Below, piece by piece: positions 10,016 to 59,207 of a DNA stretch of 64,000 bases. A model generated the notes under the pieces. That model did not search any database and was not told where the DNA came from. It worked only from the letters and a program-made list of their open reading frames with translations. The stretch is taken from positions 176 to 64,175 of the forward strand of contig PPGI01000004.1 of the NCBI GenBank assembly GCA_003173855.1. The letters are read 5' to 3'. Each line of letters starts with the position of its first letter. The first letter of the stretch is position 1. Made by a program: the position numbers and the translations under genes. The DNA is from Candidatus Zambryskiibacteriota bacterium (lineage in GTDB: Bacteria; Patescibacteriota; Minisyncoccia; Phycocordibacterales; DATDWN01).

Positions 10016-10020
10016 CAGTC

Positions 10021-11022: not shown

Positions 11023-11056
11023 TTGGAAAGCTAAATTCCTTTGGTATAATTAGTTC

Positions 11057-25084: not shown

Positions 25085-25135
25085 TGACTAAATTTAAATA
25101 GGTAAGTAATATCTTCAAAAGAAGGAGATAGTTCG

Positions 25136-25696
25136 ATGAATATTGGACTGGATTTTGACGGTGTCATCGTGAATACAGACGCACTGAAGCCCGTGATTGC
25201 CGAAAAAATGTTTGGGGTAAAAATCGAACCCCAAAACTATAACAAGAAATACGTTTTTTCGAAAAACCTACTCACGCCAGAACAATATCTGGCTGTTGCA
25301 GTAGAAGTTCATACAGGCAATCATCCTTTTGAAGAAGTTCCTGGAGCTCTTGAACATATTAAGATGCTTCAGGAGTTTGGTTGCAATATCTCTGTCGTTA
25401 CGAGCCGATCGTTCAGACAAGGTAATCTAGGGATTGCTCAAAATTGGATTTGGAGTAATGGCCTCGATTTGCCAATCATCGGAATTCCATACGGTTCATC
25501 AAAGGTTGAAGCGTGTCGAGAACTCGACATGTTTATCGATGATGATCTGGACGTCGTTGTTTCTTTGATTGGGATTGTTCCCCATCCATTTCTTTTCTCG
25601 TGGCCTCATAAAGTTTGGGATAACATACCCCGAGAAATTACTCAAGTGAGATCGTGGAACGAATTCTACATGTACGTGTACACGTACAGTAAGTGA
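25136..25696 (+). CDS. HAD-superfamily nucleotidase, NT5C-like (5'(3')-deoxyribonucleotidase family), putative
   Basis: N-terminal LDFDGVIV (DxDGV HAD motif I) and later DD motif. Size and pattern resemble NT5C deoxynucleotidases. First gene of the higher-GC island. Confidence 0.5.
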   Translation: MNIGLDFDGVIVNTDALKPVIAEKMFGVKIEPQNYNKKYVFSKNLLTPEQYLAVAVEVHTGNHPFEEVPGALEHIKMLQEFGCNISVVTSRSFRQGNLGIAQNWIWSNGLDLPIIGIPYGSSKVEACRELDMFIDDDLDVVVSLIGIVPHPFLFSWPHKVWDNIPREITQVRSWNEFYMYVYTYSK

Positions 25697-25706
25697 GGGA
25701 GTTCTG

Positions 25707-26342
25707 ATGCGTATCCTTAGACACGAAATGATCAACGAAAAGGAACTTCTTAGTCGATTGAAGCAGGTGCGGCTCAAGGGCTTTGGAGAACCTCTGATAT
25801 ATGAGAGTGCAAATCTCTCAATCGTTCCTGGGGTTATGACAGGAGCTTTGTATCCTCCACAGCGGTACGTCCTCAAGGGAACGGTCGAGACCATTCTCGA
25901 AATCGCGGACGCCTTTGAAAAAAGAAGTATCGACATCTTTGCTCTTCGAGGAGCAGTCTTTTTCTGGCTAGAAGGTTCTGATCCGCTTCTCGATCCTCCG
26001 ATTCCACTTCTGCCACCAATCGTTGAAATCTCTCACGAACCGGGTAATCGTATGGTACCTCTCATAAACGATGGGATGCACAGAACTTATAGTGCACGAA
26101 AACGTGGAAGGGAAATTAACATTGTTCTGGTTGCCAATGTTCCAAGAGAGTATCCGTATTACGCCTATGCACTTAAAGACGGATGGAAAGAGGTGCAGGA
26201 AATTGAGGAACTTACGGATGGTTTCAAGAAAAAGGAGTACAGAAACCCAGACAATTACAAAGCGCTCTTTCGAAATTTCAATGCGGTGTTCCAAGGAGTC
26301 CAGGAACAACGCAAACAAACTCAGCCGGAACTTAAAGAATAA
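25707..26342 (+). CDS. Hypothetical protein with ParB/sulfiredoxin-like (DGxHR) domain
   Basis: PPIVEISHEPGNRMVPLINDGMHRTYSARKRGREINIVLVANVP resembles the ParB-like motif PIvV...Y.iiDGhHR..A....G...i.vvV. Confidence 0.35.
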   Translation: MRILRHEMINEKELLSRLKQVRLKGFGEPLIYESANLSIVPGVMTGALYPPQRYVLKGTVETILEIADAFEKRSIDIFALRGAVFFWLEGSDPLLDPPIPLLPPIVEISHEPGNRMVPLINDGMHRTYSARKRGREINIVLVANVPREYPYYAYALKDGWKEVQEIEELTDGFKKKEYRNPDNYKALFRNFNAVFQGVQEQRKQTQPELKE

Positions 26343-26417
26343 TTTCTGGCACAGCGAGGCATTCGTGCCTCGCTTTTCTTTTTTGTTAGAGTATGTAAAA
26401 GTATTGCGAGAAAGGAG

Positions 26418-27032
26418 ATGTATATGCGTCCTACATGGGATGAGTCGTTCATGCTCAAGGCAATGGTTTCTGCAATAAGAAGTTCGTGTCTCGTTAGACC
26501 CGTTGGCGCAGTTCTTGTTCGAGACAAACGAGAAGTAGCATCTGGCTACAACGGAGCTCCGCCGAATGTAGAGACTTGTCTTGAAACAAGTGTTTGTTTT
26601 TATCAGGATCTAGCCTACAAAGATAGTCTGCTAGGTCATGGTACTTACGAAGATTTGAAAGACAAGAGAAAGCAGTTTTGTGTGGCAGCTCATGCAGAAA
26701 TAAACACTTTTGCACAGTGTTCGCTACTCGGAATTTCTGCTGCAGGTTGCTCACTTTACATCACAAACTTTCCTTGTCCGGGATGTGTTCGAGATGTAAT
26801 TATCCCGAACAAGATTTCTGAGATTGTGGTCTGGAAAGATTACCTCAGGAATCCAGCAATCACTCTTGACGAGCTAACGATGAGTGAACTCTGGCTTCAG
26901 AGAGCTGGCATCAAAGTTCGGAGACTCAAGTTCTCTGAAACAAGAATCAGAGAACTCTTCGTTCAGCTTTTGATGGCTGGTGAGCGTACCGACTACAAGT
27001 TCATTCCACTCACAGAGACCGTACAGAAGTAA
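26418..27032 (+). CDS. dCMP deaminase (ComEB/cytidine-deoxycytidylate deaminase family)
   Basis: CVAAHAEINTFAQC (H-A-E zinc/catalytic motif) and NFPCPGCVRDVI (PCxxC), with close alignment to ComEB. Confidence 0.8.
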   Translation: MYMRPTWDESFMLKAMVSAIRSSCLVRPVGAVLVRDKREVASGYNGAPPNVETCLETSVCFYQDLAYKDSLLGHGTYEDLKDKRKQFCVAAHAEINTFAQCSLLGISAAGCSLYITNFPCPGCVRDVIIPNKISEIVVWKDYLRNPAITLDELTMSELWLQRAGIKVRRLKFSETRIRELFVQLLMAGERTDYKFIPLTETVQK

Positions 27033-27132
27033 TTCTGTACGGTCTTTCTTTATACTTTATTATTATTTGTAAAAGTGATATAAAAATTTAAGAATTGCAC
27101 ATTTTCTTGCGGGTAACCGCTGAAAGGACAAA

Positions 27133-28617
27133 ATGGAATTCGTTCCACTCTACTATGCCGAGCGTCTCCGGGTCGTGAATCCGACCGGAGATGTTGGAAT
27201 TGCAACACTATGGTCAAAAGTGGAGTCAGTTATCGAAGTTCTGGAAAGCTCTGGTGTGGATTTATCTCCAGAAACATCGAGAATTGTTGTAGTGGCTAAT
27301 CTGTACGGAAATGGTTTGCCACACATGCTCCGAAATCTTCTTCACAATCCACAGATTCACTACATTGTAATTTGCGGGAAAAACCTCTCTGGTTCGCGGG
27401 AGTGGCTCCTGAACTTCTTTGCGCACGGGCTTGAAGAAGTAATGTTTCTTGGAGCAAAGTCATTTCGGATCATTGGTACTGAAAGAATCATCGATGGCGA
27501 AGTCAGGCGGGAAGATTTTTCAAATCCTCCACAGATTTCTGTCTTTGGTGAAATTAGTTCCAACGAAACGAAAGTTGGTATCAAAACTTTTCTTGAAACT
27601 TTGCCTCCGAAAATTGGAGACGAAATTATAAGGATTGATCCGCCAGAAGTTCCGCAACCTGCTGTCACGCGTTTTCCATCGAATGCGTTTGGTCATCAGA
27701 TTTTGCGAGAGAGACCAACGGAAGCTTGGCGTGAGCTTATCTTCCGGCTCTATCGTTTTGGTCATCGTACCACTATTACAAAAAGTAGTGGCCCCGAGCA
27801 GCGCATCGAACTTCCAAATGTTCGTGTTGTTGTGGAAGATCCAAGTGAAGAGTCAAAAGAAATAGTTAGTTCGGCGGGGTTTAGCTTGGAAAGATTCCGT
27901 GATTATCAAAAACGGATTCTCGATCCCATAAAGCCTGCTGATCTCGATTACAGCTATGGCTCACTACTTCGTATGGGGCTCGATAAGAAGCCAATCGATT
28001 CGCTAGAAATCATTGCGGATCGAATGACTTCAAATCCTGACACACGAAGTGCCTTTGCAACTCTCTGGAATAACGCCATACACCTTCCGATGGGTCGTGA
28101 CCTTCCATGCTTCGTTACGTTTTTTTTCAGGCGATTCGAAGAAAAGCTCACGATGACTGCTACTTTCCGTGCACATAATGCGATGGATGCATGGCTCGAG
28201 AATTTTTACGGCCTTGCAGCTATTCAAAGATTTGTTACGGAAAGATCAGGTTTAGAACGTGGTCCCATAACGGTCATAAGTCATTCAATAAGCATTGACC
28301 CTAATGCTCTTTCTCGGGCCAAGAGTATTGTTGATGACAAAAAGACAGACGAGATTCTCGATAAATCAACTGGCAAATTGGGCCCTCGTTTTGATCCGAA
28401 CGGCGCCTTTACGGTGACTATCGATCGCTCGACACTTGAACTCGTTGTCGAGCATTCGTTTCAAGGCATGAAGCTTGGCGAATATCGCGGCAGGACAGTG
28501 GAGGAAATCGAACACCAACTCTCACGTGATGAGGTACTGTCCGTATTCTCACATGCACTTTACCTAGGACGAGAGCTTGCAAGAAAGGAGATGGAATTAA
28601 AAGTTCTAAAGAAATAA
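27133..28617 (+). CDS. Thymidylate synthase / dCMP-hydroxymethylase superfamily enzyme with a novel roughly 200-aa N-terminal extension
   Basis: C-terminal half aligns to ThyA: YSYGSLLR...IDSLEIIADRMTSNPDTRSAFATLWN ~ PVYGKQWR...[26 protein letters not shown]. Nucleophile Cys in PCF (ThyA PCH) at nt 28108-28110. GPITVISHSISI ~ GDFVWTGGDTHLY. Confidence 0.6.
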   Translation: MEFVPLYYAERLRVVNPTGDVGIATLWSKVESVIEVLESSGVDLSPETSRIVVVANLYGNGLPHMLRNLLHNPQIHYIVICGKNLSGSREWLLNFFAHGLEEVMFLGAKSFRIIGTERIIDGEVRREDFSNPPQISVFGEISSNETKVGIKTFLETLPPKIGDEIIRIDPPEVPQPAVTRFPSNAFGHQILRERPTEAWRELIFRLYRFGHRTTITKSSGPEQRIELPNVRVVVEDPSEESKEIVSSAGFSLERFRDYQKRILDPIKPADLDYSYGSLLRMGLDKKPIDSLEIIADRMTSNPDTRSAFATLWNNAIHLPMGRDLPCFVTFFFRRFEEKLTMTATFRAHNAMDAWLENFYGLAAIQRFVTERSGLERGPITVISHSISIDPNALSRAKSIVDDKKTDEILDKSTGKLGPRFDPNGAFTVTIDRSTLELVVEHSFQGMKLGEYRGRTVEEIEHQLSRDEVLSVFSHALYLGRELARKEMELKVLKK

Positions 28618-28620
28618 GAG

Positions 28621-28652
28621 AGCCCCGCTGCTAAGTCAGAGCGGGGCTTTTT
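28621..28652 (+). terminator. Strong GC-rich rho-independent terminator closing the island
   Basis: AGCCCCGCTG-CTAAGTCAG-AGCGGGGCT then TTTTGT. Confidence 0.7.
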
Positions 28653-28682
28653 GTAATTTGAGCTCAATGTTATCATTCCAAT

Positions 28683-29108
28683 ATGATTCTGAAGGTTAAA
28701 AAACTTCATTCAGATGCCATTTTGCCATCATATGCTCACCCAGGAGATGCCGGACTGGATATGTATTCAAATGAGACTGTGACAATTGAACCCGGGCAGG
28801 CACATAAGGTGAAAACTGGGATTGCATTCGAGATTCCAGACGGCTACGTGGGACTGATTTGGGATAAAAGTGGAGTAGCATTTAATCATAAATTAAAAAC
28901 TTTAAGCGGAGTGATAGATTCAGGATACAGAGGTGAAGCTATGCTTAGTCTCATAAATTTAAGCAATACACCTTGCACGATAGAAAAAGGTCATAAAGTC
29001 TCGCAAATGTTAATTCAAAAAGTGGAAACAGTTGAAGTGAAAGAGGTTAATGAATTATCAGAAACGAAACGTGGTGAAGGTGGTTTTGGAAGTACTGGAA
29101 GAAAATGA
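28683..29108 (+). CDS. dut: dUTP diphosphatase (dUTPase)
   Basis: AGLDM, GVIDSGYRGE, and C-terminal RGEGGFGSTG motifs. Confidence 0.85.
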   Translation: MILKVKKLHSDAILPSYAHPGDAGLDMYSNETVTIEPGQAHKVKTGIAFEIPDGYVGLIWDKSGVAFNHKLKTLSGVIDSGYRGEAMLSLINLSNTPCTIEKGHKVSQMLIQKVETVEVKEVNELSETKRGEGGFGSTGRK

Positions 29109-30751: not shown

Positions 30752-33700
30752 ATGGAAAAAGGAGAAGATAAATCCTTAAAAAGTCCAATTGCTATAAAGG
30801 AGGAAGAAATACTAGCTTTCTGGAAAGAAAACAAAATTTTTGAGAAGTCGTTAGAGAAAAAATCGCCAAAAGGTGAGTTTGTATTTTACGATGGTCCAGC
30901 AACTGCAAATACAAAACCAGTTTTTCATACAATGGAACCTTTTGCTTTCAAGGATTTGATTCCACGCTACAGAACAATGCGAGGTTATCACGTTCGTAGA
31001 AAGGGTGGGTGGGACACTCATGGTTTGCCAGTTGAATTGCAGATTGAGAAAAAACTTGGATTTAAATCAAAAAAAGATATTGAAAATTTTGGTATCGCCG
31101 AATTTAACAGACTCTGTAAAGAAAGTGTCTGGGAATTTATCGGATTGTGGAAAGATTTCACTTCGAGAATGGCTTACTGGGCTGATCAAGACAATGCTTA
31201 CGTCACTTACGATAACGCATACATCGAATCTGTATGGAATGTAATTAAATATGTTAATGACAGAAATTTACTCTACAAGGATTACAAAGTTCTACCTTGG
31301 TGTCCAAGATGTGGAACCGCTCTTTCTTCTCATGAGCTTGCTCAAGGATATCAAGATGACAAAGATCTTTCAGTAACTGCAAAATTTAAAGTTGTTGGGG
31401 AAGAAAATACGTATTTACTTGCTTGGACAACGACTCCTTGGACTTTGCCTGGAAATGTTGCTCTAGCTGTAGGGGCCGATATTGATTACGTAAAAATAAA
31501 AAAAGGAGAGGAATTTTTAATTCTGGCTAAAGAAAGATTATCAATTGTTGAAGACGAATATAAGATAGTTGAAGAATTCAAAGGTGTGAAATTAGTCGGT
31601 TTAAAATACGAGCCACTTTACCACTATCTTGCAAATAAATTTGATAAAAAAGATCCGATTGCTTTCGAAAAATCTTATCAAATCTACGCTGCGCCTTTTG
31701 TAAACACTGAAGATGGAACAGGAATTGTTCATACGGCTGTAATGTATGGCCAGGATGATTTTGTCCTAGGGACATCTGTCGGTTTGCCGAAGCATCATTT
31801 GGTAAAAGATGATGGGCATTTTGGAGATGATATGGATTTTCTCTCAGGCAGGTTTGTTAAAGACGAAGAGGTGGCAGTAGATATTGTTAAAGATTTGGCC
31901 AAGAGAGGATTATTGTTTGATAAAAAATATTATACTCACTCGTACCCTCATTGTTGGAGATGCAAAACTCCGCTTATTTATTATGCGCGAGATTCTTGGT
32001 ACATCTCGATGTCAAAATTGCGTTCAGAACTTGTTCGTGAAAACGAAGAAATTCATTGGGAACCAGAACATATTAAAGAAGGCCGATTTGGTGAGTGGCT
32101 TCGTGAGATAAAGGATTGGGCGCTTTCTCGAGAGAGATATTGGGGAACACCTCTGCCTGTTTGGTTTGATGATGAAGGAAATTTTACAGTTCTGGGTTCA
32201 ATTGAAGATTTAAAAAAACACATAAAAACTTCGGGGAATAAATATTTTTTGATGCGACATGGTTGGGCACTTTGTAATGAAAAAAATGTAGAAAGTTTAA
32301 ATCCAGGAGAAGAAAATGATTCAATAACCGAAAAGGGAATTGCTGAAGCAAAAAAATCATTAGGAAAATTAAAAAATATAGATTTAATTGTTACATCCAA
32401 TTTTCGACGAGCAAAACAGACTGCAGAACTTGCTGCAGAATATTTTGGAATTCCAAAAAATGAAATTATCGTTGATGAGGGTTTGTGTGAAGATGAGGGC
32501 ACAATGGAGCATTTTGCTGGAGTTCGAAAAAGAATGGTTGAAGCTATGTCAGATCTAGAGAAAAAAAATTTAAATAAAAATATTCTAGTTATTTCTCATC
32601 AGTACCCGCTTAGAGTTTTGATTTCATCACATGAAGCATTTAACGAAAGAGAAGAAAAAGAAAAATTTGAAGTTACTCCATTTGATACCGGAGAAATTAG
32701 AGAAATTAATTTCTTGCCATTACCTCGAAATTCCAATTCCGAAGTAGATTTACACCGACCATACATCGATGAAGTCGAGTTAGTAGATAAAAATGGAAAG
32801 AAATTACAGCGTGTAAAAGAGGTGATGGATGTTTGGTTTGATTCAGGTTGTATGCCATTTGCCCAAGATCATTATCCGTGGAATAGAGATATACTTTATC
32901 CTGCAGATTTTATTTCGGAGGCTATCGATCAGACGCGAGGCTGGTTTTATACGTTGCATGCAATTGGAGTGTTAATGGAAAAAGGCAGAGCGTTTAAAAA
33001 TGTAATTTGTCTCGGACATATTCTTGATAAAGAGGGCAAAAAAATGTCGAAATCTGTCGGCAATGTTGTTGATCCTTGGACAGTTATAGATAAATTTGGT
33101 GTCGATGCATTGCGTCTCTGGATGTATTCAGTAAATTCTCCGGGAGATTCAAAAAACTTTGATGAGAAAAGTGTGGATGAATTAATAAAAAAAGTCTTCA
33201 ATCCATTAAACAATATCGTAGCATTTTACGAATTATATAAAGACGAGAACACAAAAACGACTAACAAAAGCAAAAATGTTTTAGATAAGTGGATACTATC
33301 GAGGTTCGCACAGTTAATTAAAAGTGGGACAGAAAACATGGATAATTTCAAAGTTTTTGAATCAGCACGCCCGATAAGAGATTTTGTAAATGATTTTTCA
33401 ACTTGGTATGTCAGACGATCACGAGATAGGTTTAAGTCTGATAATGTTGACGAAAAGAACGAAGCTCTTGGAACAACTTTGTTTGTACTAATGGAATTGG
33501 CAAAATACATGGCACCGTTCACACCATTTTTTGCTGAAGAAATTTATCAAAAACTTAAGACTTCAAATGATCCAGAAAGTGTTCATTTAGAGAATTGGCC
33601 AGAAGCACCAAAGTTAGACAATGGTTTGCTCGATCAAATGGAAAAAGCTAGAGTTGTTGTATCTCGAGCACTGGAACTTAGACAAAAAGCAGGTCACAAA

Positions 33701-34075
33701 ATTCGTCAGCCATTGCAAAGTCTTTCTATTCCAGAAAAATTTGATAGAGAAATGCTAGAAATTATTGCTGACGAAGTGAATGTAAAAGTAGTAAAAATTT
33801 CTGGGAATGAAGTTGTTCTTGATACGAATCTCACAGAAGAACTTAAAACCGAAGGAATAATGAGAGATGTTATTCGTTTTATTCAAGATTCAAGGAAAAC
33901 AAAAGGATTGCTCGCTACAAAAGTTGTCTCGGCAACGATTTTCCTCCCGAATTCGATAGCAGAAGTTGTATCTACATATAAAAGCGAAATTATAAAAATT
34001 ACTAATCTTTCTGAACTTCAAGTGGTAATAGATAAAAAAGAAGGTGAAGAATTGAATGTTGATTTTGTGTCATAA
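30752..34075 (+). CDS. ileS: Isoleucyl-tRNA synthetase (type 2) with an inserted histidine-phosphatase-like domain and a degenerate HIGH motif
   Basis: WDTHGLPVE, WCPRCGTALSSHE, WALSRERYWGTPLP, DLHRPYID, KMSKSVGN all IleRS-like. About 155-aa insert with RHG...TSNFRRAKQTA...VISHQ between WGTPLP and DLHRPYID. Confidence 0.8.
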   Translation: MEKGEDKSLKSPIAIKEEEILAFWKENKIFEKSLEKKSPKGEFVFYDGPATANTKPVFHTMEPFAFKDLIPRYRTMRGYHVRRKGGWDTHGLPVELQIEKKLGFKSKKDIENFGIAEFNRLCKESVWEFIGLWKDFTSRMAYWADQDNAYVTYDNAYIESVWNVIKYVNDRNLLYKDYKVLPWCPRCGTALSSHELAQGYQDDKDLSVTAKFKVVGEENTYLLAWTTTPWTLPGNVALAVGADIDYVKIKKGEEFLILAKERLSIVEDEYKIVEEFKGVKLVGLKYEPLYHYLANKFDKKDPIAFEKSYQIYAAPFVNTEDGTGIVHTAVMYGQDDFVLGTSVGLPKHHLVKDDGHFGDDMDFLSGRFVKDEEVAVDIVKDLAKRGLLFDKKYYTHSYPHCWRCKTPLIYYARDSWYISMSKLRSELVRENEEIHWEPEHIKEGRFGEWLREIKDWALSRERYWGTPLPVWFDDEGNFTVLGSIEDLKKHIKTSGNKYFLMRHGWALCNEKNVESLNPGEENDSITEKGIAEAKKSLGKLKNIDLIVTSNFRRAKQTAELAAEYFGIPKNEIIVDEGLCEDEGTMEHFAGVRKRMVEAMSDLEKKNLNKNILVISHQYPLRVLISSHEAFNEREEKEKFEVTPFDTGEIREINFLPLPRNSNSEVDLHRPYIDEVELVDKNGKKLQRVKEVMDVWFDSGCMPFAQDHYPWNRDILYPADFISEAIDQTRGWFYTLHAIGVLMEKGRAFKNVICLGHILDKEGKKMSKSVGNVVDPWTVIDKFGVDALRLWMYSVNSPGDSKNFDEKSVDELIKKVFNPLNNIVAFYELYKDENTKTTNKSKNVLDKWILSRFAQLIKSGTENMDNFKVFESARPIRDFVNDFSTWYVRRSRDRFKSDNVDEKNEALGTTLFVLMELAKYMAPFTPFFAEEIYQKLKTSNDPESVHLENWPEAPKLDNGLLDQMEKARVVVSRALELRQKAGHKIRQPLQSLSIPEKFDREMLEIIADEVNVKVVKISGNEVVLDTNLTEELKTEGIMRDVIRFIQDSRKTKGLLATKVVSATIFLPNSIAEVVSTYKSEIIKITNLSELQVVIDKKEGEELNVDFVS

Positions 34076-42712: not shown

Positions 42713-43129
42713 ATTAGACTTACTTATCCACATTTCATACATTACAATTTTTTCTAAAAAAGACTGATTTTGTTAGAAATGATCAGGATTGATCAAACAC
42801 TTTTTAAGTCAAATTTTGAATTTTAGCCATCATAAGGGTTTTGTATTTCTATACTAGAAACCTATATAAACCTTTATAAACATTCATAAAAAAAGCAGGT
42901 TTTATTAACCTTTAGTTCAATTATAATTTGGCTTGATCTTTCTCGGATATTAATTTAATTTTCTAAAAATTTTTTAAAAATTAGCATTTCTTAGAAATTT
43001 CAAATTTTAATAAAATCAACGAAATTGGAAAAATCATTTTCTAAGGCCAAAACCTCGTTTTATGGCTAATAATAAGTGATAAAATATTATTATTGCTACG
43101 CTCGCTTTGTAGCAAAGTACCTTATTCTG

Positions 43130-46100
43130 ATGAAACTCAGGAAGTATAAATCTTTGAAAGGAAGGTATGCTTTGTGCCTAATTACATTTTTTTTGGGGTC
43201 TTTTTTGCTCTCTCCAAGTAGTGTCTTCGCTGCCCCAATGATTTCTAGCGAATTCAAAGAGGGTCTTTATAATAAAGGTTTTATTGATTTGCGAGAAATA
43301 AATAAAGTCATAAATCAATTATCAAGCAAAATAAATTATAATTTAACATTTTCAAGTTCTTTCCCAACAAGCACAAATTTTTCAAATGTAGAATCAGCAA
43401 ATATAAATATTTCAGATTTTTTTTCTTCTGCAATTTCTGAGGCAAAATATTTAACAGATGGCCAGGTTGCATTAATCAAAAATTATTTGGATTCAGTAGC
43501 CGGCGGTCTGCAATATGTTTCTAGTTCATTTAAAATTGCATACCAACGATCAAACAATCGAAGATCAACTGCCAGTGCTTTAAATTCTGGTAAGTTTAGA
43601 AATCGAGCGGCGGTTCAAAAAACGACTACAAAAGTTGCAGTTGTTAAAAACGAAAATCAATCACCTCCTGCAAAAAATGTTGCTGCGATTTCTTTCCCAC
43701 AAGTAATTAAAAAAATTCTAAATCCTTCTCGAGTGTCAGTGCCAAGTGCAACTGAACAAATTTTAGCATCTGCAAACTTTGTTACAAAAGTTGATTTAGA
43801 ATCTAGTTTGCAAAAAATCTATAATGAAATTTTACAGAAATTTTCAAACACAGGATCAGTGAGCTCCACAGATCTGGCAGCAATTTACAGACAAATTGCT
43901 CTTAGTCAAAAAATTGATAATTTATCAAATGTTGTTATAACAAATCCAACTATTTCTGGTGGAACAATTACTAACGTCACCAATCTGACAGTTGCAGCAA
44001 CTGGTTCAACAACAATTACAAACCTGGTAGTTACAAATACTTCAACATCAACATTTGCAGGTGGAATAGCGATAACAGGTGGATGTCTTTCTGTAAACGG
44101 CACATGTATTAGTTCTGGCTCTGGTTCCGGAACCCCTGGAGGATCAGATGGGTATGTTCAATTTAACAGTGGAGGATCATCTTTTGGAGGCTCGTCAAAT
44201 TTTGTTTGGGATAATACAAATATTAGGCTTGGAATAGGCACATCATCCCCATATTCAACTCTCTCTGTCGCAGGTCAGATAGTAGGAGCATATTTTACAG
44301 CAACTACAACAACTGCAAGCACATTTCCTTATGCATCGACTACCGGTGTCTCTATTACCGGGGGATTAACCCTTCCAACAACTTTTAATGGCCCTCTTCA
44401 GGCGAATGCTGGAATAGTTTCTGCAACAACATCAATTGGAATTCTTTATGGAGGTACCGGAGCTACAACTTTCGGAGCCAACTCGATTATTACTTCAAAC
44501 TCAGCTGGTACAGCATTGATTGCAACGACTTCAAACAACTTTACTATCGGATCTCTCATTGCCACGAGTTCAACTCTGAACAATATTTTTCTTAACAATT
44601 GGAATGGTTTTGGAACAAGTACGCCAAAATGGTTAGCACAATTTTCATCTTCAACTGCACCTCAGCTGGCTTTATCTGATGCAGGAAGTAACATCTGGAC
44701 ATTCAGAGTGGATTCAGGTTCACTTACAATTGGAACATCTTCACCAACTACATTTGCTACCAGCACTACACCTCAAATTTCTATTGCCAATACTGGATTT
44801 GGTACAACGACACTTCGTGGACTAAATATTAATGCTCAAGCTACGAGCACTTCTAACGTTGGTGAAAATATCTCAACTGGTTGTTTTGCTATGTCTGGAA
44901 CTTGTATGGGCATCTTCCCATTCACGACAAATGCTGGATACAACTCAACATCTACAATACTTGGACTTAACGGACTATTCTCAACTGCCTCATCAACATT
45001 CAGTTCATCACTTTATTTATCAAGTCTCACTCAAGGATTTAGCTACCTGGGATCTAATGGATTAATACAAACTATTGCAACAAGTACTCTAGCAAATTAC
45101 ATCCTTCCATTTACCTCATACGGAGCTTCAACCTCAACAATACTTGGATTTACAAATGGTCTGTTTTCTACAGCATCATCAACATTCTCATCTAACCTAT
45201 ATCTCTCGAACCTCACTCAAGGATTTAGCTATCTAGGTTCAAATGGACTATTTCAAACAATCTCAACATCAACATTAGCCAACTACATCCTTCCATTCAC
45301 TTCCTACGGAGCATCAACTTCAACAGTTCTAGGTCTAACAGGAGGTTACTTCTCAACAGGATCATCAACGCAGAGTGGAAACTTCTTCCTTCCAGCACTA
45401 ACTCAAGGTTTCACCTACACTGGTTCAAACGGATTGGTTTCTATAGTTTCGACTTCAACTCTAACCAACTTCATTTTGACTTTCAAATCATACGGAGTCT
45501 CGACCTCATCCGTTACCGGCTTTTTGGGCGGTTTCTTCTCAACTGCCTCCTCAACACAATCTTCTAACTTTTATCTTCCAGCTCTAACACAAGGTTTCCT
45601 TTACAACGGATCAAGTGGTCTAACACAAACTATTGCTTCTTCTTCTGTAAACCTATCTTGGTTTAATAACGATGCGGCATTTGCCAATAACCCATTTACT
45701 GCAATATCATCACAAGCAGGATATTCCGCTACTACATCTTCATTGGTTATTGGAACAACTACGGCTCCAGTAAACATTGCTTCTGTTACAATCGCGTCAT
45801 CAACCGCCTCTCAACTTGCACTTAGTGGTGGAGCAGGTCAATCAATATGGACATTTAGAAATGCTGGAAGTAACTTCTACCTAGCAACTACTACAACTGC
45901 CGGCACAGCAACCACATCAACAAACGCTATGACAATATTGGGAAGCAGCGGTTTTGTTGGCTTTGGAACAACAACTCCAACTCTTGGCCCTCTGACAATG
46001 AACTCTGGAGCGTATGTAACAACTGGAGGTGTTTGGACGAATGCTTCAGATCGAAATTTGAAAGAGAATTTTCTTGAAGTAAATATTGAAGAAATACTTA

Positions 46101-46819
46101 ATAAAATTGTTCAATTGCCTATCACGCAATGGAACTATAAAGCTGAACCAGCAAGCACCACTCACATAGGTCCAGTGGCTCAAGATTTTTATGCTGCATT
46201 TCATACTGGAGGTTCAAATACTTCTATTTCTACTATAGATCCTGCGGGCGTTGCTCTAGTCGGAATAAAAGCTTTGTATAAGATGATTACAGACATCAGT
46301 AAATATTTTGTTAATGATGTTTTGAAAATTGGCCAAGTTTCTACTAAAAAACTTTGTGTTTCTGACGAAAACGGAGAAACTTGCATTACACGAGCAGAAC
46401 TTACAGCACTTCTTCTTAAGCTTAAAGATTCTGGCAGTAATTCAAACACACAAACACCACCACCAAACAGTCCACCTCCTCCTCAAAATTCCAACGCAAC
46501 TAGCACTGAAACTTCTGCGGACACAACTGCACCAGTTATAACTATCATTAGCGATAACCCTGCAAATGTATTTTTTGGAACAACATATTCTGATATGGGA
46601 GCAACGATAACTGATACTGGCGCTGATGGGACTGTAAATAATAATCTCGGGTTACATTTCAGCGTAGATGGAGTAAATGTAGATCAAGTTATTATAGATA
46701 CCTCGATAAGTAGCACCTCAGTTCAGGCAACCACAACCCATACAGTGGTTTATTCAGCAGTCGATAGTTCAGGCAACTGGGGTTATGCTACGCGTACAGT
46801 TAACGTTTTACCTCAATAA
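43130..46819 (+). CDS. Giant tail-fibre-like surface protein with internal tandem repeats, S74 intramolecular-chaperone domain and C-terminal DUF5011 Ig-like domain
   Basis: Signal peptide. Four 60-aa tandem repeats (nt 44944-45660). SDRNLKENF...QWNYK...HIGPVAQDF matches the endosialidase chaperone domain. C-terminus APVITIISDNPANVFFGTTYSDMGATITD...TRTVNV matches DUF5011. Confidence 0.6.
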   Translation: MKLRKYKSLKGRYALCLITFFLGSFLLSPSSVFAAPMISSEFKEGLYNKGFIDLREINKVINQLSSKINYNLTFSSSFPTSTNFSNVESANINISDFFSSAISEAKYLTDGQVALIKNYLDSVAGGLQYVSSSFKIAYQRSNNRRSTASALNSGKFRNRAAVQKTTTKVAVVKNENQSPPAKNVAAISFPQVIKKILNPSRVSVPSATEQILASANFVTKVDLESSLQKIYNEILQKFSNTGSVSSTDLAAIYRQIALSQKIDNLSNVVITNPTISGGTITNVTNLTVAATGSTTITNLVVTNTSTSTFAGGIAITGGCLSVNGTCISSGSGSGTPGGSDGYVQFNSGGSSFGGSSNFVWDNTNIRLGIGTSSPYSTLSVAGQIVGAYFTATTTTASTFPYASTTGVSITGGLTLPTTFNGPLQANAGIVSATTSIGILYGGTGATTFGANSIITSNSAGTALIATTSNNFTIGSLIATSSTLNNIFLNNWNGFGTSTPKWLAQFSSSTAPQLALSDAGSNIWTFRVDSGSLTIGTSSPTTFATSTTPQISIANTGFGTTTLRGLNINAQATSTSNVGENISTGCFAMSGTCMGIFPFTTNAGYNSTSTILGLNGLFSTASSTFSSSLYLSSLTQGFSYLGSNGLIQTIATSTLANYILPFTSYGASTSTILGFTNGLFSTASSTFSSNLYLSNLTQGFSYLGSNGLFQTISTSTLANYILPFTSYGASTSTVLGLTGGYFSTGSSTQSGNFFLPALTQGFTYTGSNGLVSIVSTSTLTNFILTFKSYGVSTSSVTGFLGGFFSTASSTQSSNFYLPALTQGFLYNGSSGLTQTIASSSVNLSWFNNDAAFANNPFTAISSQAGYSATTSSLVIGTTTAPVNIASVTIASSTASQLALSGGAGQSIWTFRNAGSNFYLATTTTAGTATTSTNAMTILGSSGFVGFGTTTPTLGPLTMNSGAYVTTGGVWTNASDRNLKENFLEVNIEEILNKIVQLPITQWNYKAEPASTTHIGPVAQDFYAAFHTGGSNTSISTIDPAGVALVGIKALYKMITDISKYFVNDVLKIGQVSTKKLCVSDENGETCITRAELTALLLKLKDSGSNSNTQTPPPNSPPPPQNSNATSTETSADTTAPVITIISDNPANVFFGTTYSDMGATITDTGADGTVNNNLGLHFSVDGVNVDQVIIDTSISSTSVQATTTHTVVYSAVDSSGNWGYATRTVNVLPQ

Positions 46820-46865
46820 TCTTCTCTATTGCATAGGTTAGGTAATTTATGATAGGCTTCAGTTC

Positions 46866-47396
46866 ATGGCAAAACAGGCTAAAGAGGCGAAAGCGCCAAA
46901 AGATGACTCGATAACAATATACGAGGTCTCATTTATATTTCTGCCAACTATCGCTGAAGCAGACGTTGTTTCAAAGGTAGAAAATTTAAGACAAACTATT
47001 TCGAAAGCAGGTGGAACAATAATTTCCCACGAAGATCCAGTACTGATCGATTTGGCATATAGAATGACAAAAGTGACTCCAAACTCACGTCACAAAGCTG
47101 ATTCTGGTTATTTTGGGTGGGTAAAGTTTGAAATTTCTCGAGATAATGTTGAGGCAATTAAAAAAATCCAGAAATCTTTAGACGACAACGAAGAAATTCT
47201 ACGTTCACTTATCATAAAAACAGTTCGAGAAAATACTTTGATAAATGGCAAAATGAAATTGCAAAAGGAGGAAAAAACAAAGAAAACATATTCAACAGAA
47301 GAAATTGATGAGTCAGTTGATCTTGGCGAAGAATTACCAAAGGAAGCTTCTAGTGAAGATATGGATAAAAGCATCGACGAGCTTGTAATAAACTAA
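46866..47396 (+). CDS. rpsF: 30S ribosomal protein S6 (acidic C-terminal extension)
   Basis: YEVSFIFLPTI...DLAYRM S6 core. rpsF-ssb-rpsR order. Confidence 0.85.
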   Translation: MAKQAKEAKAPKDDSITIYEVSFIFLPTIAEADVVSKVENLRQTISKAGGTIISHEDPVLIDLAYRMTKVTPNSRHKADSGYFGWVKFEISRDNVEAIKKIQKSLDDNEEILRSLIIKTVRENTLINGKMKLQKEEKTKKTYSTEEIDESVDLGEELPKEASSEDMDKSIDELVIN

Positions 47397-47397
47397 T

Positions 47398-47841
47398 ATG
47401 TATCTAAACAAAGCAATCATCATCGGAAATCTGACTCGAGACCCTGAAATGCGCGCACTGCCGTCTGGAATTAAAGTTGCAAGCTTTGCAGTTGCTACAA
47501 ACCGAGTTTGGAAAGATAAAAACGGAGTAAAGCAGGAAAATGTTGATTATCACAATGTGGTTGTTTTTGGCAGACAAGCAGACATTGTCGGACAATATAT
47601 GAAAAAGGGAAGTTCAATTTTAGTTGAAGGCCGAATGCAGACACGATCATGGGATGATGCTTCAGGCCAGAAAAAATACCGAACTGAAATAATTGCAGAT
47701 CGAATCCAGTTTGGTCCACGAAAAGAAGGCGGCAATGGCGGATACTCTGCGCCAGTTTCTGCACCAGTTGAAGATAAGAAAGCAATGGATACAATTGAGT
47801 ATCCAGAAGAAGAGATTAACCCAGAAGATATTCCATTTTAA
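47398..47841 (+). CDS. ssb: Single-stranded DNA-binding protein
   Basis: MYLNKAIIIGNLTRDPEMR OB fold. C-terminal acidic tail ending DIPF. Confidence 0.9.
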   Translation: MYLNKAIIIGNLTRDPEMRALPSGIKVASFAVATNRVWKDKNGVKQENVDYHNVVVFGRQADIVGQYMKKGSSILVEGRMQTRSWDDASGQKKYRTEIIADRIQFGPRKEGGNGGYSAPVSAPVEDKKAMDTIEYPEEEINPEDIPF

Positions 47842-47849
47842 TCGAATTT

Positions 47850-48050
47850 ATGAAACAAGATTTTTTTAACGAAAACAATATTAAATATATCGACTACAAA
47901 GATGTCGAAGTTTTGAAGAAATTTCTAAATCCTCATGCACGAATTATTTCTCGAAAGAGATCTGGAATTACTGCAAAGAATCAGAGGAATCTAGCAGTAG
48001 CCATCAAACGCGCTCGCTTTATGGGATTGTTACCTTTTGTGTCCAGATAG
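47850..48050 (+). CDS. rpsR: 30S ribosomal protein S18
   Basis: IDYKDVEVLKKFL...ARIISRKRSGITAKNQRNLAVAIKRARFMGLLPF. Confidence 0.9.
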   Translation: MKQDFFNENNIKYIDYKDVEVLKKFLNPHARIISRKRSGITAKNQRNLAVAIKRARFMGLLPFVSR

Positions 48051-55100: not shown

Positions 55101-55691
55101 GCCTTGTAATAATAGTGTGATATTTACGTCTATGCCCATAGTAATCGACTTGACAGAATAGTTGACTTTTTTAGCCTTTTCATGAAATAATGGCCAAACG
55201 GATGATTTGGCTTTAAAAGCTATATATTTAGCCACATAAAGTCGTAGTTATCCACATATTCTGGTTGGAAGTATATAAAAGAGTGTATATAATTAGTCTC
55301 ATACGGCAATTGTATTCACTTCATTTTTATACTGAATTTCAGAACGAATCAGAACTTTGACAACTGAATATGGATTTAAAAATTAAAGCATGATTTTTGT
55401 CATGCTTACTCACAGTCTAACTGATTATTCTTTAATTACAGTGATGGATGAACTCAGTCAAAAAATACATCTATACCTTTGCTTTATGTGTCGATTAGCA
55501 AATGAAGTGAAGGATTAGAATGAAAGGTATAACTCTTCATCTTTATGTATGCAAAGTTTTTTTTGCGGACATAGAGATGAACGAGTTGTATCGGAATTAT
55601 TAAGTTCGGTATAATCGTTTTTCAAAATAATTTTTTCTTAAAATTATTTAACAGTAAAAGAGAAAATTATTTCATTATTAAAAATACACAT

Positions 55692-58600
55692 ATGAATTTA
55701 ACAAAATCAAAAACTGCAAAGATTGCGGCTGGTGTTGTTGGATTTGCAATGGTAGTAACAGCATTCATGCCAGTATTGGCATCTGCTGACACTGCTTCAG
55801 ATCTACAAGCACAGATCAACAGCTTGCTTGCGACAATTCAGTCACTACAAGCACAGCTTGCAGCAACAACAGGCGGTAGCTCTTCAGTAGGAAGCTTTAG
55901 CTTCAGTACCAACTTAACAGTTGGTTCAAAAGGTACTGATGTTATGAATCTTCAAAAGGTTCTAAACATGAGTGCTGATACGCAAGTAGCTGCTTCAGGT
56001 CCAGGTTCAAAAGGAATGGAAACATCAACTTTTGGTCCTTTGACAAAGGCTGCTGTAATCAAATTCCAAATTAAATTTGGAATTTCTCCAGCTGCTGGAT
56101 ATGTTGGTCCAAAGACTCGAGCAAAGTTGAGCACAATGGGTGGAGTTTCATCTACACCTACACCAGTTACTCCAGGCACTCCAACAGGAGGAGCATTGTC
56201 AGTATCTAGTGCAGTTCAACCTTCAAACTCACTTGCACCAAAAAATGCTTCACGAGTTCCTTTCACAAGGTTTACTCTTACAGCAGGAGCAAGCGATGTC
56301 ACAGTTAACTCTGTAACAGTCCAGCGATCAGGATTTGCAAACGATGCAGTCTTCTCTGGAATTGTTCTATTGGATCAAAATGGAATGCAAGTCGGCATTT
56401 CAAAGACTTTGAACTCTAATCACCAAGCAAATCTTGGCGATAATTTCATTGTTCGAGCAGGTACATCACAGACATACACAGTTGCAGGTAACATGGCATC
56501 TGACGAATCAAGCTATGTTGGTCAAATTGCTTCACTTGATGTAGTTGCAGTCAACTCAAGCGCAACAGTTTCTGGTGCACTTCCTATTACAGGAGCACAG
56601 CAAACTGTAAACAACAGCTTGACAGTTGGTACAGTTACAATTGGAACATCTTCATTTGACCCTAATAACGGAGCTTCAAACTCAGTTGGAACAACAGGTC
56701 TTCGATTTACAGGCTTCCGAATCACAGCAGGTTCAGCAGAGGACCTTACATTGAAATCAATTCGATGGAATCAATCAGGTTCAGCAGGATCAAATGATCT
56801 TGGAAACATTATGACTGTTGTAAATGGTGTATCTTACCCAACAACAGTTTCAGCTGATGGTAAGTATTACTCAACAGTATTTCCTAGCGGAATTGTTATC
56901 GCAAAAGGTAACTCTGTTGATGTATACGTTCAGGGTGATCTAGTAGGATCAGGCGCTGCAGGTAGAACTGTAGAGTTCGATGTCTACAAAAACACTGACC
57001 TTTACCTAAGTGGAAATACATACGGTTACGGTATCACTGCAGCAACAGGTTCTGGGGTAGTATTGACTACAGCTAACCATGCTACAGTTTTGAACACATC
57101 TTCTAACCCATGGTTGGAAGGTTCACAAATGTCTGTAACAGCTGGTCAAGTAACACTTATTGGAAAAGCTAGCGAAATTGCAGCACAAAACATTGCTACA
57201 AACGTTCCAAATCAACCTTTGGGAGGATTTGCAACAAACTTCACTGGTGAACCAGTATCTGTACAGGGTCTATGGTTGGTGCTTTCAACAACAACAACAG
57301 CAGGTCCTACAGCTAACTCTCCATTCTCTGCTATCACGAACATTACGCTCGTTGATCAGAATGGTGCAGTAGTTGCTGGTCCAGTTGATGCTACAGTTGG
57401 TGATGGTACTTCATCACACGGTGGTATCACTCCAAACACATCAGGATACGCTGTTGTACACTTTACTGACACAGTTACATTCCCAGTTGGACGACGAGTC
57501 TACACTGTGAAAGGTAAGATTCCATCTGCTTGGGCAAATGGTGCTACTGTAACTTTGTACACGAAGCCTTCAACAGACTTCACAACACCTACTGGACAGA
57601 CAACTGGAAACTCAGTTGATCTATCTAGTCAGGCAACTGCATTCACTATGAACCAAATGACTGTTAAGGGTGCAGCTTTGCAAGTTAACATTGCAGCTCA
57701 ACCTGCATCTCAAAACGTTGTAGGAGGAGTTCAGGGATTTGTTCTTGCAAACTATCAGTTTGACGCTACACAATCAGGTGAGGATGTAAGATTGTCATCA
57801 ATGCCAGTAGTAATTACTGCAGGTGGTGCTGCTACAGCTTCTCAACTTACTGGTTGTCAGCTATGGAATGGTACGACACCTTTGAACACTGGTTCAGGAG
57901 TTGTTAACACATTCTCATCTGGTACAGCTAAGACATACAGCTTTGACAACGCTCTAATTATTCCAAAAGGAACTGCAGTGACATTGTCACTTGCATGTAA
58001 TGTTTCAAGCGCAGTTACATCTGGTACATTCCAGGTATCTGCTGATTCAACAACATCAGATTGGTCTGTAACAGGACTAACATCTGGTAACACTGTTACA
58101 CCTACATTCGGTACTGGAAGCGGTGGTACGATGACAGTTGGAACTGGCTCATTTGCAGTTACAGTTGACTCATCATCCCCTGCTACAACTACAGTTGCTG
58201 GAGGTGCAAGTGGAATTACACTTGGAGTCTTCAAATTCCGAGCATCTAACGAAGATATTAACCTTACAAAGGTTGCTATTCAGTTAGCTACAGGAACATC
58301 TGCAAACATTGGAACAATGTATGTTTACCAAGGTTCAACACTTCTTGGTACAGCAATCTTCCCACAGGGTAACCTTGCAATAGCTACTTCAACATTGAAT
58401 ACACCATTCAAACTCACACGAGATACAGATGTATTGATCACTGTGAAAGCTGATATGGCAGCTATCGGAACAGGTCAATCTGGAGTTGAAGGACAGCCAG
58501 TTATTGCTAACGTTTCAGTTGCTGAAGGATCAGGTCTATCATCAGGTTTGACTCTTGATGTAGTTGGTATTAGTACAGGTGCTGCTGGAGTGCGAACATT

Positions 58601-59207
58601 CAAGTCGTTCCCAACAGTCGCAGCTGACACATTGCCAGGTACAGGAGTTGCTGACGGTAAACTTATGCGATTCAAGATTACAGCTGACTCACATGGTCAA
58701 GTTGGTATCTATCAGCTAAGCTTCAAGGTCGCTACTTCATCCTTTGCAACAGGAGGTGGTGTATCTAACGTCAAGGTAATGGTTTACTCTGATGCAGCTT
58801 ACTCACAGCCTGTGAGTGGTACATACGGAGCAGCTACAGGACAATTTGGTGCAACAGCATCTGTGTTCTCAACAAACACAACCTTCAACGTAACAGCTAC
58901 AACAAACCCACTCGAGATCCCTGCTGGAACAACTTATTACGTCCAGCTTGAATCAACAGTACAGAGCACTCAGACAGGTACATCTGTGACAACTACACTT
59001 AATGGTGATGCAGCATACATTTCTGCAGCTCACTTAGGTGCAAGCTTTGTCTCAACTACAACTGGTGCAGTTGCTGATACAAACAACAACTTTATCTGGT
59101 CAGGTAACGCTACTTCGACGGCAGTATTCAACTCAAATGACTGGGCTAACGGCTTCAGCATCTTGGGTCTTCCATCAGGTGGTTTGAGCCAGACTCGATC
59201 AAACTAA
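55692..59207 (+). CDS. Giant secreted S-layer-like protein with N-terminal coiled coil and peptidoglycan-binding (PGB1) domain
   Basis: Signal peptide (AFMPVLASA). PGB1-like block GSKGTDVMNLQKVLN...FGPLTKAAVIKFQIKFGISPAAGYVGPKTRAKL. About 1000 aa of T/S/G/A/V-rich beta repeats. Monocistronic with strong terminator. Confidence 0.55.
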   Translation: MNLTKSKTAKIAAGVVGFAMVVTAFMPVLASADTASDLQAQINSLLATIQSLQAQLAATTGGSSSVGSFSFSTNLTVGSKGTDVMNLQKVLNMSADTQVAASGPGSKGMETSTFGPLTKAAVIKFQIKFGISPAAGYVGPKTRAKLSTMGGVSSTPTPVTPGTPTGGALSVSSAVQPSNSLAPKNASRVPFTRFTLTAGASDVTVNSVTVQRSGFANDAVFSGIVLLDQNGMQVGISKTLNSNHQANLGDNFIVRAGTSQTYTVAGNMASDESSYVGQIASLDVVAVNSSATVSGALPITGAQQTVNNSLTVGTVTIGTSSFDPNNGASNSVGTTGLRFTGFRITAGSAEDLTLKSIRWNQSGSAGSNDLGNIMTVVNGVSYPTTVSADGKYYSTVFPSGIVIAKGNSVDVYVQGDLVGSGAAGRTVEFDVYKNTDLYLSGNTYGYGITAATGSGVVLTTANHATVLNTSSNPWLEGSQMSVTAGQVTLIGKASEIAAQNIATNVPNQPLGGFATNFTGEPVSVQGLWLVLSTTTTAGPTANSPFSAITNITLVDQNGAVVAGPVDATVGDGTSSHGGITPNTSGYAVVHFTDTVTFPVGRRVYTVKGKIPSAWANGATVTLYTKPSTDFTTPTGQTTGNSVDLSSQATAFTMNQMTVKGAALQVNIAAQPASQNVVGGVQGFVLANYQFDATQSGEDVRLSSMPVVITAGGAATASQLTGCQLWNGTTPLNTGSGVVNTFSSGTAKTYSFDNALIIPKGTAVTLSLACNVSSAVTSGTFQVSADSTTSDWSVTGLTSGNTVTPTFGTGSGGTMTVGTGSFAVTVDSSSPATTTVAGGASGITLGVFKFRASNEDINLTKVAIQLATGTSANIGTMYVYQGSTLLGTAIFPQGNLAIATSTLNTPFKLTRDTDVLITVKADMAAIGTGQSGVEGQPVIANVSVAEGSGLSSGLTLDVVGISTGAAGVRTFKSFPTVAADTLPGTGVADGKLMRFKITADSHGQVGIYQLSFKVATSSFATGGGVSNVKVMVYSDAAYSQPVSGTYGAATGQFGATASVFSTNTTFNVTATTNPLEIPAGTTYYVQLESTVQSTQTGTSVTTTLNGDAAYISAAHLGASFVSTTTGAVADTNNNFIWSGNATSTAVFNSNDWANGFSILGLPSGGLSQTRSN

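Follow-up and report, generated by a model that had tools for sequence, protein, structure and literature searches.

A Patescibacteria fibre protein with an internal S74 chaperone domain, predicted to be exported, trimeric and self-cleaving

We analysed a stretch of 64,000 nucleotides from a Candidatus Zambryskiibacteriota bacterium of the Patescibacteriota (assembly GCA_003173855.1, contig PPGI01000004.1, positions 176 to 64,175 of the forward strand), hereafter the window, and focused on one gene at 43130..46819, which we call the fibre gene and which, like its parts, its leader and the rpsF-ssb-rpsR operon described below, is read from the + strand. Its product combines an N-terminal Sec-type signal peptide, a long Ser/Thr/Gly-rich fibre and an S74 intramolecular chaperone domain of the type found in phage tail fibres, but this domain is internal and is followed by a two-cysteine hairpin, a proline-rich linker and an immunoglobulin (Ig)-like domain. 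Taken together, the evidence makes it probable that the fibre gene is an accessory gene on the chromosome of a Patescibacteria cell and that it encodes a Sec-exported, most likely homotrimeric, self-cleaving adhesin made of phage-tail-fibre modules.

The long open reading frame (ORF) that ends at 46819 has two candidate starts, a GTG at 43076 and an ATG at 43130. We took the ATG, giving 1229 codons plus a stop, because the N-terminus then forms a canonical Sec signal peptide that is also present at the N-terminus of the closest homolog (P0002, at locus L001 of GCA_964576615.1); the GTG, 54 nt upstream, is an unlikely start. An earlier interpretation made from the letters of the window alone (the sequence-only reading) had given a length of 1247 aa, which is that of the GTG version and clashes with the start coordinate it used itself, and the public gene call (P0001, 1193 aa) begins at Met37, whereby the signal peptide is lost. 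Read directly from the sequence, this signal peptide covers residues 1-34 (43130..43231) and consists of a basic n-region, a 15-residue hydrophobic core and a cleavage site between VFA and AP (MKLRKYKSLKGRYALCLITFFLGSFLLSPSSVFA followed by AP). The mature part is composed of 16% Ser, 15% Thr and 10% Gly, which bears out the Thr/Ser/Gly-rich stretch that had been described upstream of the S74 domain. Of seven cysteines, one lies in the signal peptide and the others form three close C-x6-8-C pairs (C319/C326, C585/C592 and C1076/C1085), which, together with the signal peptide, fit an extracellular protein. Scanning the protein against PHROGs returned no family and against NCBIfam nothing useful.

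The S74 intramolecular chaperone and predicted self-cleaving domain spans residues 973-1064 (46046..46321). Within it, the Pfam family PF13884 (Peptidase_S74) matches residues 973-1025 (nt 46046-46204) with E = 3e-12 and 47.1 bits, well over the cut-off of 22, and scores 49.5 bits on the isolated C-terminal fragment, so that the significant profile match expected by the sequence-only reading was found, inside the interval 46040-46330 where it had placed the domain. That reading had named a Ser-Asp cleavage dyad; by the S-D-x-x-x-K definition of the S74 catalytic motif (PMC10769870, PMC4690869), the predicted catalytic pair is instead Ser973 and Lys978 (codons 46046-46048 and 46061-46063) in S-D-R-N-L-K. 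Both residues are invariant in an alignment of residues 940-1229 with the matching parts of 19 homologs (20 sequences, hereafter A2), in which only four other columns, Gly1014, Ala1017, Cys1076 and Cys1085, are likewise unchanged.

Structural comparisons point to the same assignment. An AlphaFold model of the C-terminal fragment built on A2 has a mean predicted local distance difference test (pLDDT) score of 72, and its S74 part is predicted as an alpha/beta core followed by a long helix at residues 1038-1064 (helices at fragment residues 47-55, 78-85 and 99-125, pLDDT 70-86). Searched against the PDB, the S74 part of the A2 profile matches a tail fibre (8jov, E = 7e-16), the long tail fibre of phage S16 (6f45, 3e-11), the ICA domain of the eukaryotic transcription factor MyRF (7dc3, 8e-10), T5 pb1 (8hqz, 8e-8) and GA-1 gp12 (3gud, 0.05), with alignments that extend through fragment position ~130. 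The alignment profile was required for this, as a PDB search with the single sequence of the fibre protein gave one chance match only. Foldseek also matched the C-terminal model to MyRF, with a probability of 1.0.

From Ser973 to the end of the protein there are 257 residues, and the S74 domain is therefore not C-terminal, as the sequence-only reading had correctly noted. After its long helix comes a beta-hairpin with the two invariant cysteines and a helix, at residues 1074-1100 (KKLCVSDENGETCITRAELTALLLKL; 46349..46429), a module recognised in A2 and in the AlphaFold model, where C1076 and C1085 sit on paired strands (E135-140 and E143-148 of the fragment), and for which a Pfam scan gave no family. 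The proline-rich linker noted earlier is present at residues 1101-1135 (QTPPPNSPPPPQ; 46430..46534) as a low-complexity Pro/Ser/Thr/Asn-rich segment, read from the sequence and predicted to be disordered (pLDDT <50). It leads to a C-terminal Ig-like domain of the Bact_surface_Ig-like, formerly DUF5011, type at residues 1136-1227 (46535..46810). The earlier assignment to DUF5011 holds for the fold and falls short of the formal family threshold: PF16403 covers residues 1137-1226 with 19.9 bits in the whole protein and 25.1 in the fragment, both below the cut-off of 27. We nevertheless accept the domain, because PF16403 matches 13 of the 20 family members at E<=1e-3, P0002 has a precomputed match, AlphaFold predicts an Ig sandwich with pLDDT 92-94, and the Ig part of the A2 profile matches the Big_3 domain of PDB 2kpn (E = 1.4e-5). 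Foldseek relates this part to Ig-like, Rib, PKD and Big_3 domains, all with probabilities of about 1.0.

The fibre protein is 52% identical to P0002, and this identity is distributed very unevenly: 18-36% in the N-terminal 250 residues and the repeats, 60-80% in the neck and proximal shaft (residues 251-450), 66-82% in S74 plus hairpin (residues 901-1100) and 60-76% in the Ig domain. Residues 35-250 (43232..43879) make up the variable N-terminal region, presumed to be the cell-proximal end; a match there to the Pfam family Cpf1_REC2 was sub-threshold and was taken as spurious. The conserved neck and proximal shaft block that follows (43880..44479) contains YRQIALSQKIDNLSNVVITNPTISGG, the C319-x6-C326 hairpin, GIGTSSPYSTLSV and NGPLQANAGIVSATTSIGILYGGTG, motifs shared across the family and with a phage contig described below. 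Further along, residues 596-844 (44915..45661) hold four tandem 62-residue repeats (PFTSYGASTSTILG...TQGFSYLGSNGL...), seen by TRF as a period of 186 at 45026-45369 and by a repeat hidden Markov model as four copies, compared with one or two scattered copies in each of four homologs; at 18-32% identity, they are the part least conserved in the ortholog. A motif scan located a pre-S74 loop at residues 941-956 (GFVGFGTTTPTLGPLT; 45950..45997), which is near, though not identical, to the capping-loop consensus V-G-G/N-pi-x-x-P-x-x-x-L found upstream of S74 in Bdellovibrio fibres and MyRF (PMC10769870): both VGFGTTTPTLGPL (residues 944-956) and LGIGTSSPYSTL (residues 366-377) resemble it with one residue more between Gly and Pro. 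An AlphaFold monomer of the shaft block at residues 286-500, built on a 17-sequence alignment, has a mean pLDDT of 59 and hardly any secondary structure, as would be expected for an obligate oligomer, and is uninformative about the shaft, including the beta-helix-like fold suggested for it in the sequence-only reading.

The fibre protein belongs to a family that is widespread in Patescibacteria but unstudied. A first search returned 192 homologs, nearly all of the named ones from metagenome-assembled genomes (MAGs) of Patescibacteria, Parcubacteria or Paceibacterota, and automatic annotation calls them 'tail fiber domain-containing' or 'DUF5011 domain-containing'. Our census covered 119 of these relatives. 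An S74 domain is detectable in 58, with the S-x4-K spacing kept in 55, and in 47 of the 58 more than 150 residues follow the catalytic Ser. An internal S74 domain, which the sequence-only reading called unusual, is thus the norm among these Patescibacteria proteins. Of the 47 extended homologs, 38 carry the two-cysteine hairpin or else a different two-cysteine motif (GITLYDE..G.PYC). An Ig domain was found in 25 relatives and lies after S74 in every one of them, and the order of S74, hairpin and Ig is constant. Eleven of the 58 were counted as having a terminal S74 domain, and eight of these, inspected by eye, end directly after it in a hydrophobic tail with basic residues of the form EENWQWLA...RKK (P0018, P0026, P0034, P0045, P0053, P0067, P0070 and P0113). 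The endings found after S74, whether hydrophobic tail, low-complexity Pro/Thr-rich tail or Ig domain, are all of a retention or anchor type. Two tandem S74 domains, about 130 residues apart, occur in P0076, P0079 and P0086.

Family N-termini vary: some homologs have a signal peptide, some a signal peptide with a Y.PG.TLDP.C.P...C motif, and others an HTH_17 domain followed by a membrane segment (P0027, P0029, P0040 and P0076, and by Pfam also P0012, P0049, P0063 and P0065). The HTH_17 homologs look like membrane-spanning DNA-binding proteins with a giant fibre as their outer part. Searches with the A2 profile found S74 and Ig together only in proteins named as Minisyncoccia, Zambryskibacteria or Paceibacterota, and S74 alone in Omnitrophota, Nitrospirae and Bacteroidales. 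An exhaustive A2 search of representative genomes gave 4555 matches at E<=1e-30, a count that is not a measure of the S74 and Ig architecture as the top of the list is dominated, and the list inflated, by giant multi-Ig proteins; 15 of the top 150 are matches that run in a single stretch from S74 to Ig. Used as a single query against the genome collection, the C-terminal fragment found only one Acidobacteriota and one Saccharibacteria relative. A Saccharibacteria MAG (L006) carries two tandem paralogs (3130-6633 and 6688-8931), each with S74, the two-cysteine hairpin and a Pro-rich tail; their first ~80 residues are identical. Genes with both S74 and Ig lie in or beside ribosomal-protein operons at three of six independent loci, namely next to rpsF-ssb-rpsR in the window and L001, between rpsG and fusA at L007 (7001-11980), and near infA-rpmJ-rpsM-rpsK-rpsD-rpoA at L009 (7001-11335).

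The genomic surroundings of the fibre gene are those of a bacterial chromosome. Upstream lie genes for a DUF11 protein, a class II aminoacyl-tRNA synthetase (HisRS-like), an M16 peptidase, an AI-2E transporter, MetRS and TatD, and downstream those for ribosomal protein S6, SSB, ribosomal protein S18, a GNAT protein, EF-P, RecA and FtsK, with IleRS and ArgRS elsewhere in the window. All 20 ORFs scanned around the fibre gene encode housekeeping or envelope functions, none of them a phage, integrase or lysis gene, and there is no tRNA at its borders. The rpsF-ssb-rpsR operon, identified with Pfam at 46866..48050, starts 46 bp downstream, and a terminator scan predicted no + strand terminator in between. 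At L001 the gene order is identical: a gap of 416 bp precedes the ortholog, and rpsF follows it directly. Between the two loci, identity is 58-88% for most neighbours and lower, at 47%, for RpsF alone, and the RecA proteins of the two genomes share 88% identity. In a closer relative (L074, RecA 93%), tatD and rpsF are 25 bp apart (L074 13355-13379), with neither fibre gene nor leader; the M16 peptidase gene is also missing from that site. The fibre gene and its leader (window 42713-46865) are therefore an accessory cassette, present or absent at the tatD-rpsF site, and their absence from L074 is most simply a loss, because a positional ortholog exists in L001. With cellular neighbours, no PHROG match and an ortholog at the same chromosomal position, the gene lies outside any prophage, and the prophage location by which the sequence-only reading would have been refuted was not found.

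The AT-rich leader described in that reading as about 400 bp long is a 417-bp intergenic stretch between tatD and the fibre gene (42713..43129), with 24.5% GC compared with 36.8% in the window. It has no Rfam match, a scan found no + strand sigma-70-like promoter site in it, and its sequence is not conserved in the 416-bp leader of L001. An RNA-fold z-score of -3.5 in the window leader compares with -1.1 in that of the ortholog, and we rejected the leader as a conserved RNA or regulatory element, given no Rfam match, no conservation and a predicted structure that is significant in the window alone. Words of the TTTCTAAAAA and TTCTTAGAAA type occur in several direct and inverted copies at 42750-43004 and are not conserved in L001. 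Just past the tatD stop lies a perfect DnaA-box 9-mer (TTATCCACA, 42724-42732), as it does in L001 at about 7596; with two such boxes in the window (the other at 55248-55256) against 0.68 expected, their number is not above chance.

Some features elsewhere in the window stand apart from the fibre gene. The IleRS ORF (30752-34075, 1107 aa) has a His_Phos_1 match at residues 499-586 within its catalytic domain, a pairing also seen in L074. The region 25000-29000 reaches about 43% GC, and within it an ORF at 27133-28617 joins thymidylate-synthase-like and PterinBD-DUF4346 matches. A 1171-aa ORF at 55692-59207 was considered as a paralog of the fibre gene and rejected (BLASTP E = 2.8); its sole domain is PG_binding_1 at residues 81-146, and it is syntenic in L074 and L075.

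The link to phages runs through the S74 core and the shaft. Among phage records and predicted viral structures, similarity is confined to the S74 core, with 32-36% identity over residues 973-1058, and no viral contig matches the C-terminal fragment. The shaft signature GIGTTSPYAKLSV..YFTAT..ASTFPYASTTAL is found on 64 IMG/VR contigs. One of them (L012), which has PHROG matches to portal/adaptor, major-head and endolysin proteins, encodes at 8502-11882 a protein of 1126 aa that shares the shaft motifs and Cys hairpins of the family but has a different tip and lacks an S74 domain; this protein starts with a signal-peptide-like sequence. One family member with a hydrophobic tail, P0018, lies at locus L008 in a phage-like cluster of co-directional genes of unknown function with PHROG tail and tail-fibre matches. 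Judged from these sequences, shaft modules are common to phages and cellular fibre genes, which would fit an exaptation of phage fibre parts, although transfer could have run in either direction. The idea of a domesticated phage tail fibre, one of two offered in the sequence-only reading, gains support to this extent from the matches to solved phage chaperones and from the shaft motifs on real phage contigs, which favour a phage-derived cellular fibre. The observation behind that reading is, as a whole, confirmed, and its interpretation is supported in part.

How such a protein might work can be outlined from its solved relatives. The chain would be exported unfolded through Sec, after which the S74 domains (residues 973-1064) of three chains would associate and serve as a template on which the Ser/Thr/Gly-rich shaft folds, beginning at its C-terminal end, as in phage K1F endosialidase, T5 pb1 and Bdellovibrio Bd3182. 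Once a correct trimer has formed, the Ser973/Lys978 pair would cut the Ala972-Ser973 bond, giving a mature fibre of ~938 residues (35-972), with its N-terminal end kept at the cell, and a 257-residue fragment of chaperone, disulfide hairpin, Pro-rich linker and Ig domain. The modules after S74 may retain the S74 end of the chain at the envelope and make it locally more concentrated, which would let three chains trimerise after export, outside a cell without a periplasm; in some relatives the hydrophobic tail may do this job. The mature fibre would then serve at the surface to adhere to another cell, a partner or host, or to a substrate.

Several lines of evidence lead us to infer that the protein forms trimers, is cleaved, is oriented as described, is tethered by its extension and acts as an adhesin. 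Self-cleavage is predicted from the sequence, because Ser and Lys are invariant in the 20 aligned homologs and S-x4-K is kept in 55 of 58, and by analogy with solved relatives. In T5 pb1, a 133-residue chaperone trimerises and embraces the fibre end, and Lys1269 assists in cutting the Thr1263-Ser1264 bond, which happens only in a correct trimer (PMC4690869); Bd3182, a cellular Bdellovibrio fibre with SDxxxK, self-cleaves at S782, and the S782A change blocks this (PMC10769870). The N-terminus is placed at the membrane because relatives carry HTH_17 and a transmembrane segment there. A role in adhesion or host attachment is suggested by analogy with phage fibres, the Bdellovibrio fibres and the lifestyle commonly ascribed to the candidate phyla radiation (CPR). 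The best named relatives of the RecA encoded in the window are from Minisyncoccia, Candidatus Zambryskibacteria and Paceibacterota, and since the source organism is thereby placed in Patescibacteria, the earlier suggestion of a fibre of a possibly episymbiotic cell is reasonable. Several observations weigh against this interpretation. There is no Arg at the T5-like position ~14 residues upstream of Ser973, the nearest being R910; the good conservation of the Ig domain is hard to explain if the C-terminal fragment is discarded; the signal peptide looks cleavable, which would leave the poorly conserved N-terminal end without an obvious anchor; the monomer model of the shaft, at pLDDT 59, supports neither a trimer nor a beta-helix; and the gene, missing from the syntenic site of the close relative L074, is dispensable for the basic lifestyle.

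These points have to be set against what other explanations would predict. If the gene merely encoded the tail fibre of an ordinary phage or prophage located by chance in the window, the S74 domain, typical of such fibres, the shaft motifs on IMG/VR contigs, the phage-like cluster around P0018 and the absence from L074, as for an inserted element, would all be accounted for. Such a fibre is hard to reconcile with the lack of phage, integrase and lysis genes and of bordering tRNAs, with the missing PHROG match, with a Sec signal peptide, or with a lone gene and leader between tatD and rpsF whose ortholog occupies the same position in a genome with 88% RecA identity; moreover, other members with S74 and Ig sit inside or beside ribosomal-protein operons, and phage records and viral contigs match nothing beyond the S74 core. 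This explanation is largely refuted, and we regard it as very improbable. It is also unlikely, if far from negligible, that S74 is a trimerisation module only, which makes no cut and leaves an intact protein with the C-terminal Ig domain as its distal adhesive tip. The conservation of that domain and its position as the last one in 25 of 25 homologs would then be expected, Ig, Big and Rib domains being common as adhesin tips, and so would the lack of an evident T5-like Arg just upstream of Ser973 and the loss of S-x4-K in 3 of 58 homologs, by which the family appears to tolerate non-catalytic versions. Against it, the purifying selection seen at Ser973 and Lys978 argues for catalysis, and all SDxxxK S74 domains tested so far do cleave (PMC10769870, PMC4690869).

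The orientation of the fibre could also be the reverse of the one proposed, with the C-terminal fragment, its Pro-rich linker crossing the wall, as the cell anchor, corresponding to the membrane helix of some relatives, and S74 cleavage acting as a MyRF-like switch that sheds the fibre. Linkers rich in Pro/Thr and Ig domains of the Big type are a typical feature of the wall-associated parts of surface proteins in monoderms; the signal peptide looks cleavable, so that the N-terminus may be free; and eight relatives pass from S74 to a hydrophobic helix with basic residues, the domain order of MyRF (ICA, then transmembrane segment), whose ICA domain is itself a significant profile match. We nonetheless consider this arrangement quite improbable, given that many relatives have HTH_17 and a transmembrane segment that would fix the N-terminus in the membrane and that in all S74 fibres characterised so far the working tip is the shaft's C-terminal end, set free by cleavage (PMC10769870, PMC4690869). 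In addition, the sole variant with a transmembrane tail whose context was examined sits in a phage-like cluster and may not inform about cellular proteins. A Sec-exported, self-cleaving adhesin held at its N-terminal end remains the interpretation we prefer.

Should these fibres act as adhesins in host recognition, they would add to the fibres of Bdellovibrio a second, independent example of a cell-dependent bacterium that reuses the receptor-binding hardware of phages, and their variable middle parts could help to predict host range. To our knowledge, host attachment and recognition in CPR bacteria, or Patescibacteria, are largely unknown beyond type IV pili. We tentatively put forward a broader idea, which as a whole we think rather doubtful: Patescibacteria may have built from phage tail-fibre parts a large family of envelope fibres of their own, in which S74 became an internal processing switch, added modules (disulfide hairpin, Pro-rich linker and Ig domain, or a membrane helix) keep the nucleus of folding attached to the envelope in cells that have no periplasm, and trimer-dependent cleavage frees the tip or sheds the fibre. 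As several members lie in or next to ribosomal-protein operons, cells would be expected to produce such fibres in abundance at their surface, and the fibres could be the attachment organelles long sought in episymbiotic CPR bacteria. Saccharibacteria are a CPR lineage with cultured members, and the relatives in L006 may thus open the idea to experiment.

Compared with known systems, S74 fibre adhesins are established as a kind, and what is new here is an internal S74 domain with hairpin, linker and Ig after it. Literature searches returned nothing relevant that links S74, intramolecular chaperones or tail fibres with Patescibacteria, CPR or Saccharibacteria. With the S74 fibres of phages (MEROPS S74/PF13884: K1F endosialidase, T5 pb1, GA-1 gp12 and S16 gp37), the fibre protein shares the S-D-x-x-x-K core followed by a long helix, the element of S74 domains that forms the trimeric coiled coil, and the long Ser/Thr/Gly-rich fibre before it, and the family profile matches 8jov, 6f45, 8hqz and 3gud. 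It agrees with the S74 definition in profile, motif and predicted fold, but not in C-terminal placement: in phages the domain makes up the C-terminal 130-150 residues of a protein that is synthesised in the cytoplasm and built into the virion, whereas the fibre protein has a Sec signal peptide, housekeeping neighbours and ~165 further residues after the chaperone.

Also close in kind are the mosaic adhesive trimer (MAT) S74 fibres of Bdellovibrio bacteriovorus, such as Bd3182 (PMC10769870), which are likewise cellular proteins of ~1000 aa with a signal peptide, a phage-like fibre and an SDxxxK S74 domain, in a bacterium that lives on other cells; the Gly/Pro loop upstream of S74 in the fibre protein bears a partial resemblance to theirs. 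MAT fibres end in S74 or in an adhesive tip domain, and the S74 members of that group end in S74, in contrast to the internal S74 domain of the fibre protein; they share a conserved beta-rich N-terminal domain of ~130 aa, and residues 35-250 of the fibre protein are variable even compared with their own ortholog; and the bacterium that makes them is a diderm predator rather than a Patescibacteria cell. MAT-like proteins have been named elsewhere in Micavibrio, Uabimicrobium and Omnitrophica, with no mention of Patescibacteria (Caulton et al. 2024, PMC10769870). Among bacterial surface Ig-like domains (PF16403, Big_3, HYR, Rib and PKD-type), the C-terminal 92 residues are alike in that they model as an Ig sandwich, but such domains usually come in arrays, and the fibre protein has a single copy after S74 that scores below the Pfam cut-off. 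MyRF offers a parallel for an interior S74-type domain whose self-cleavage, predicted here, yields two functional pieces, and some relatives also share with it a hydrophobic helix after S74. It differs as a eukaryotic transcription factor of the endoplasmic reticulum membrane, whose N-terminal, DNA-binding part is released into the cytosol on cleavage, whereas the fibre protein is predicted to be wholly extracellular and has no membrane helix after S74. Its internal S74 domain would correspond, in a prokaryote and outside the cell, to the cleavage switch of MyRF.

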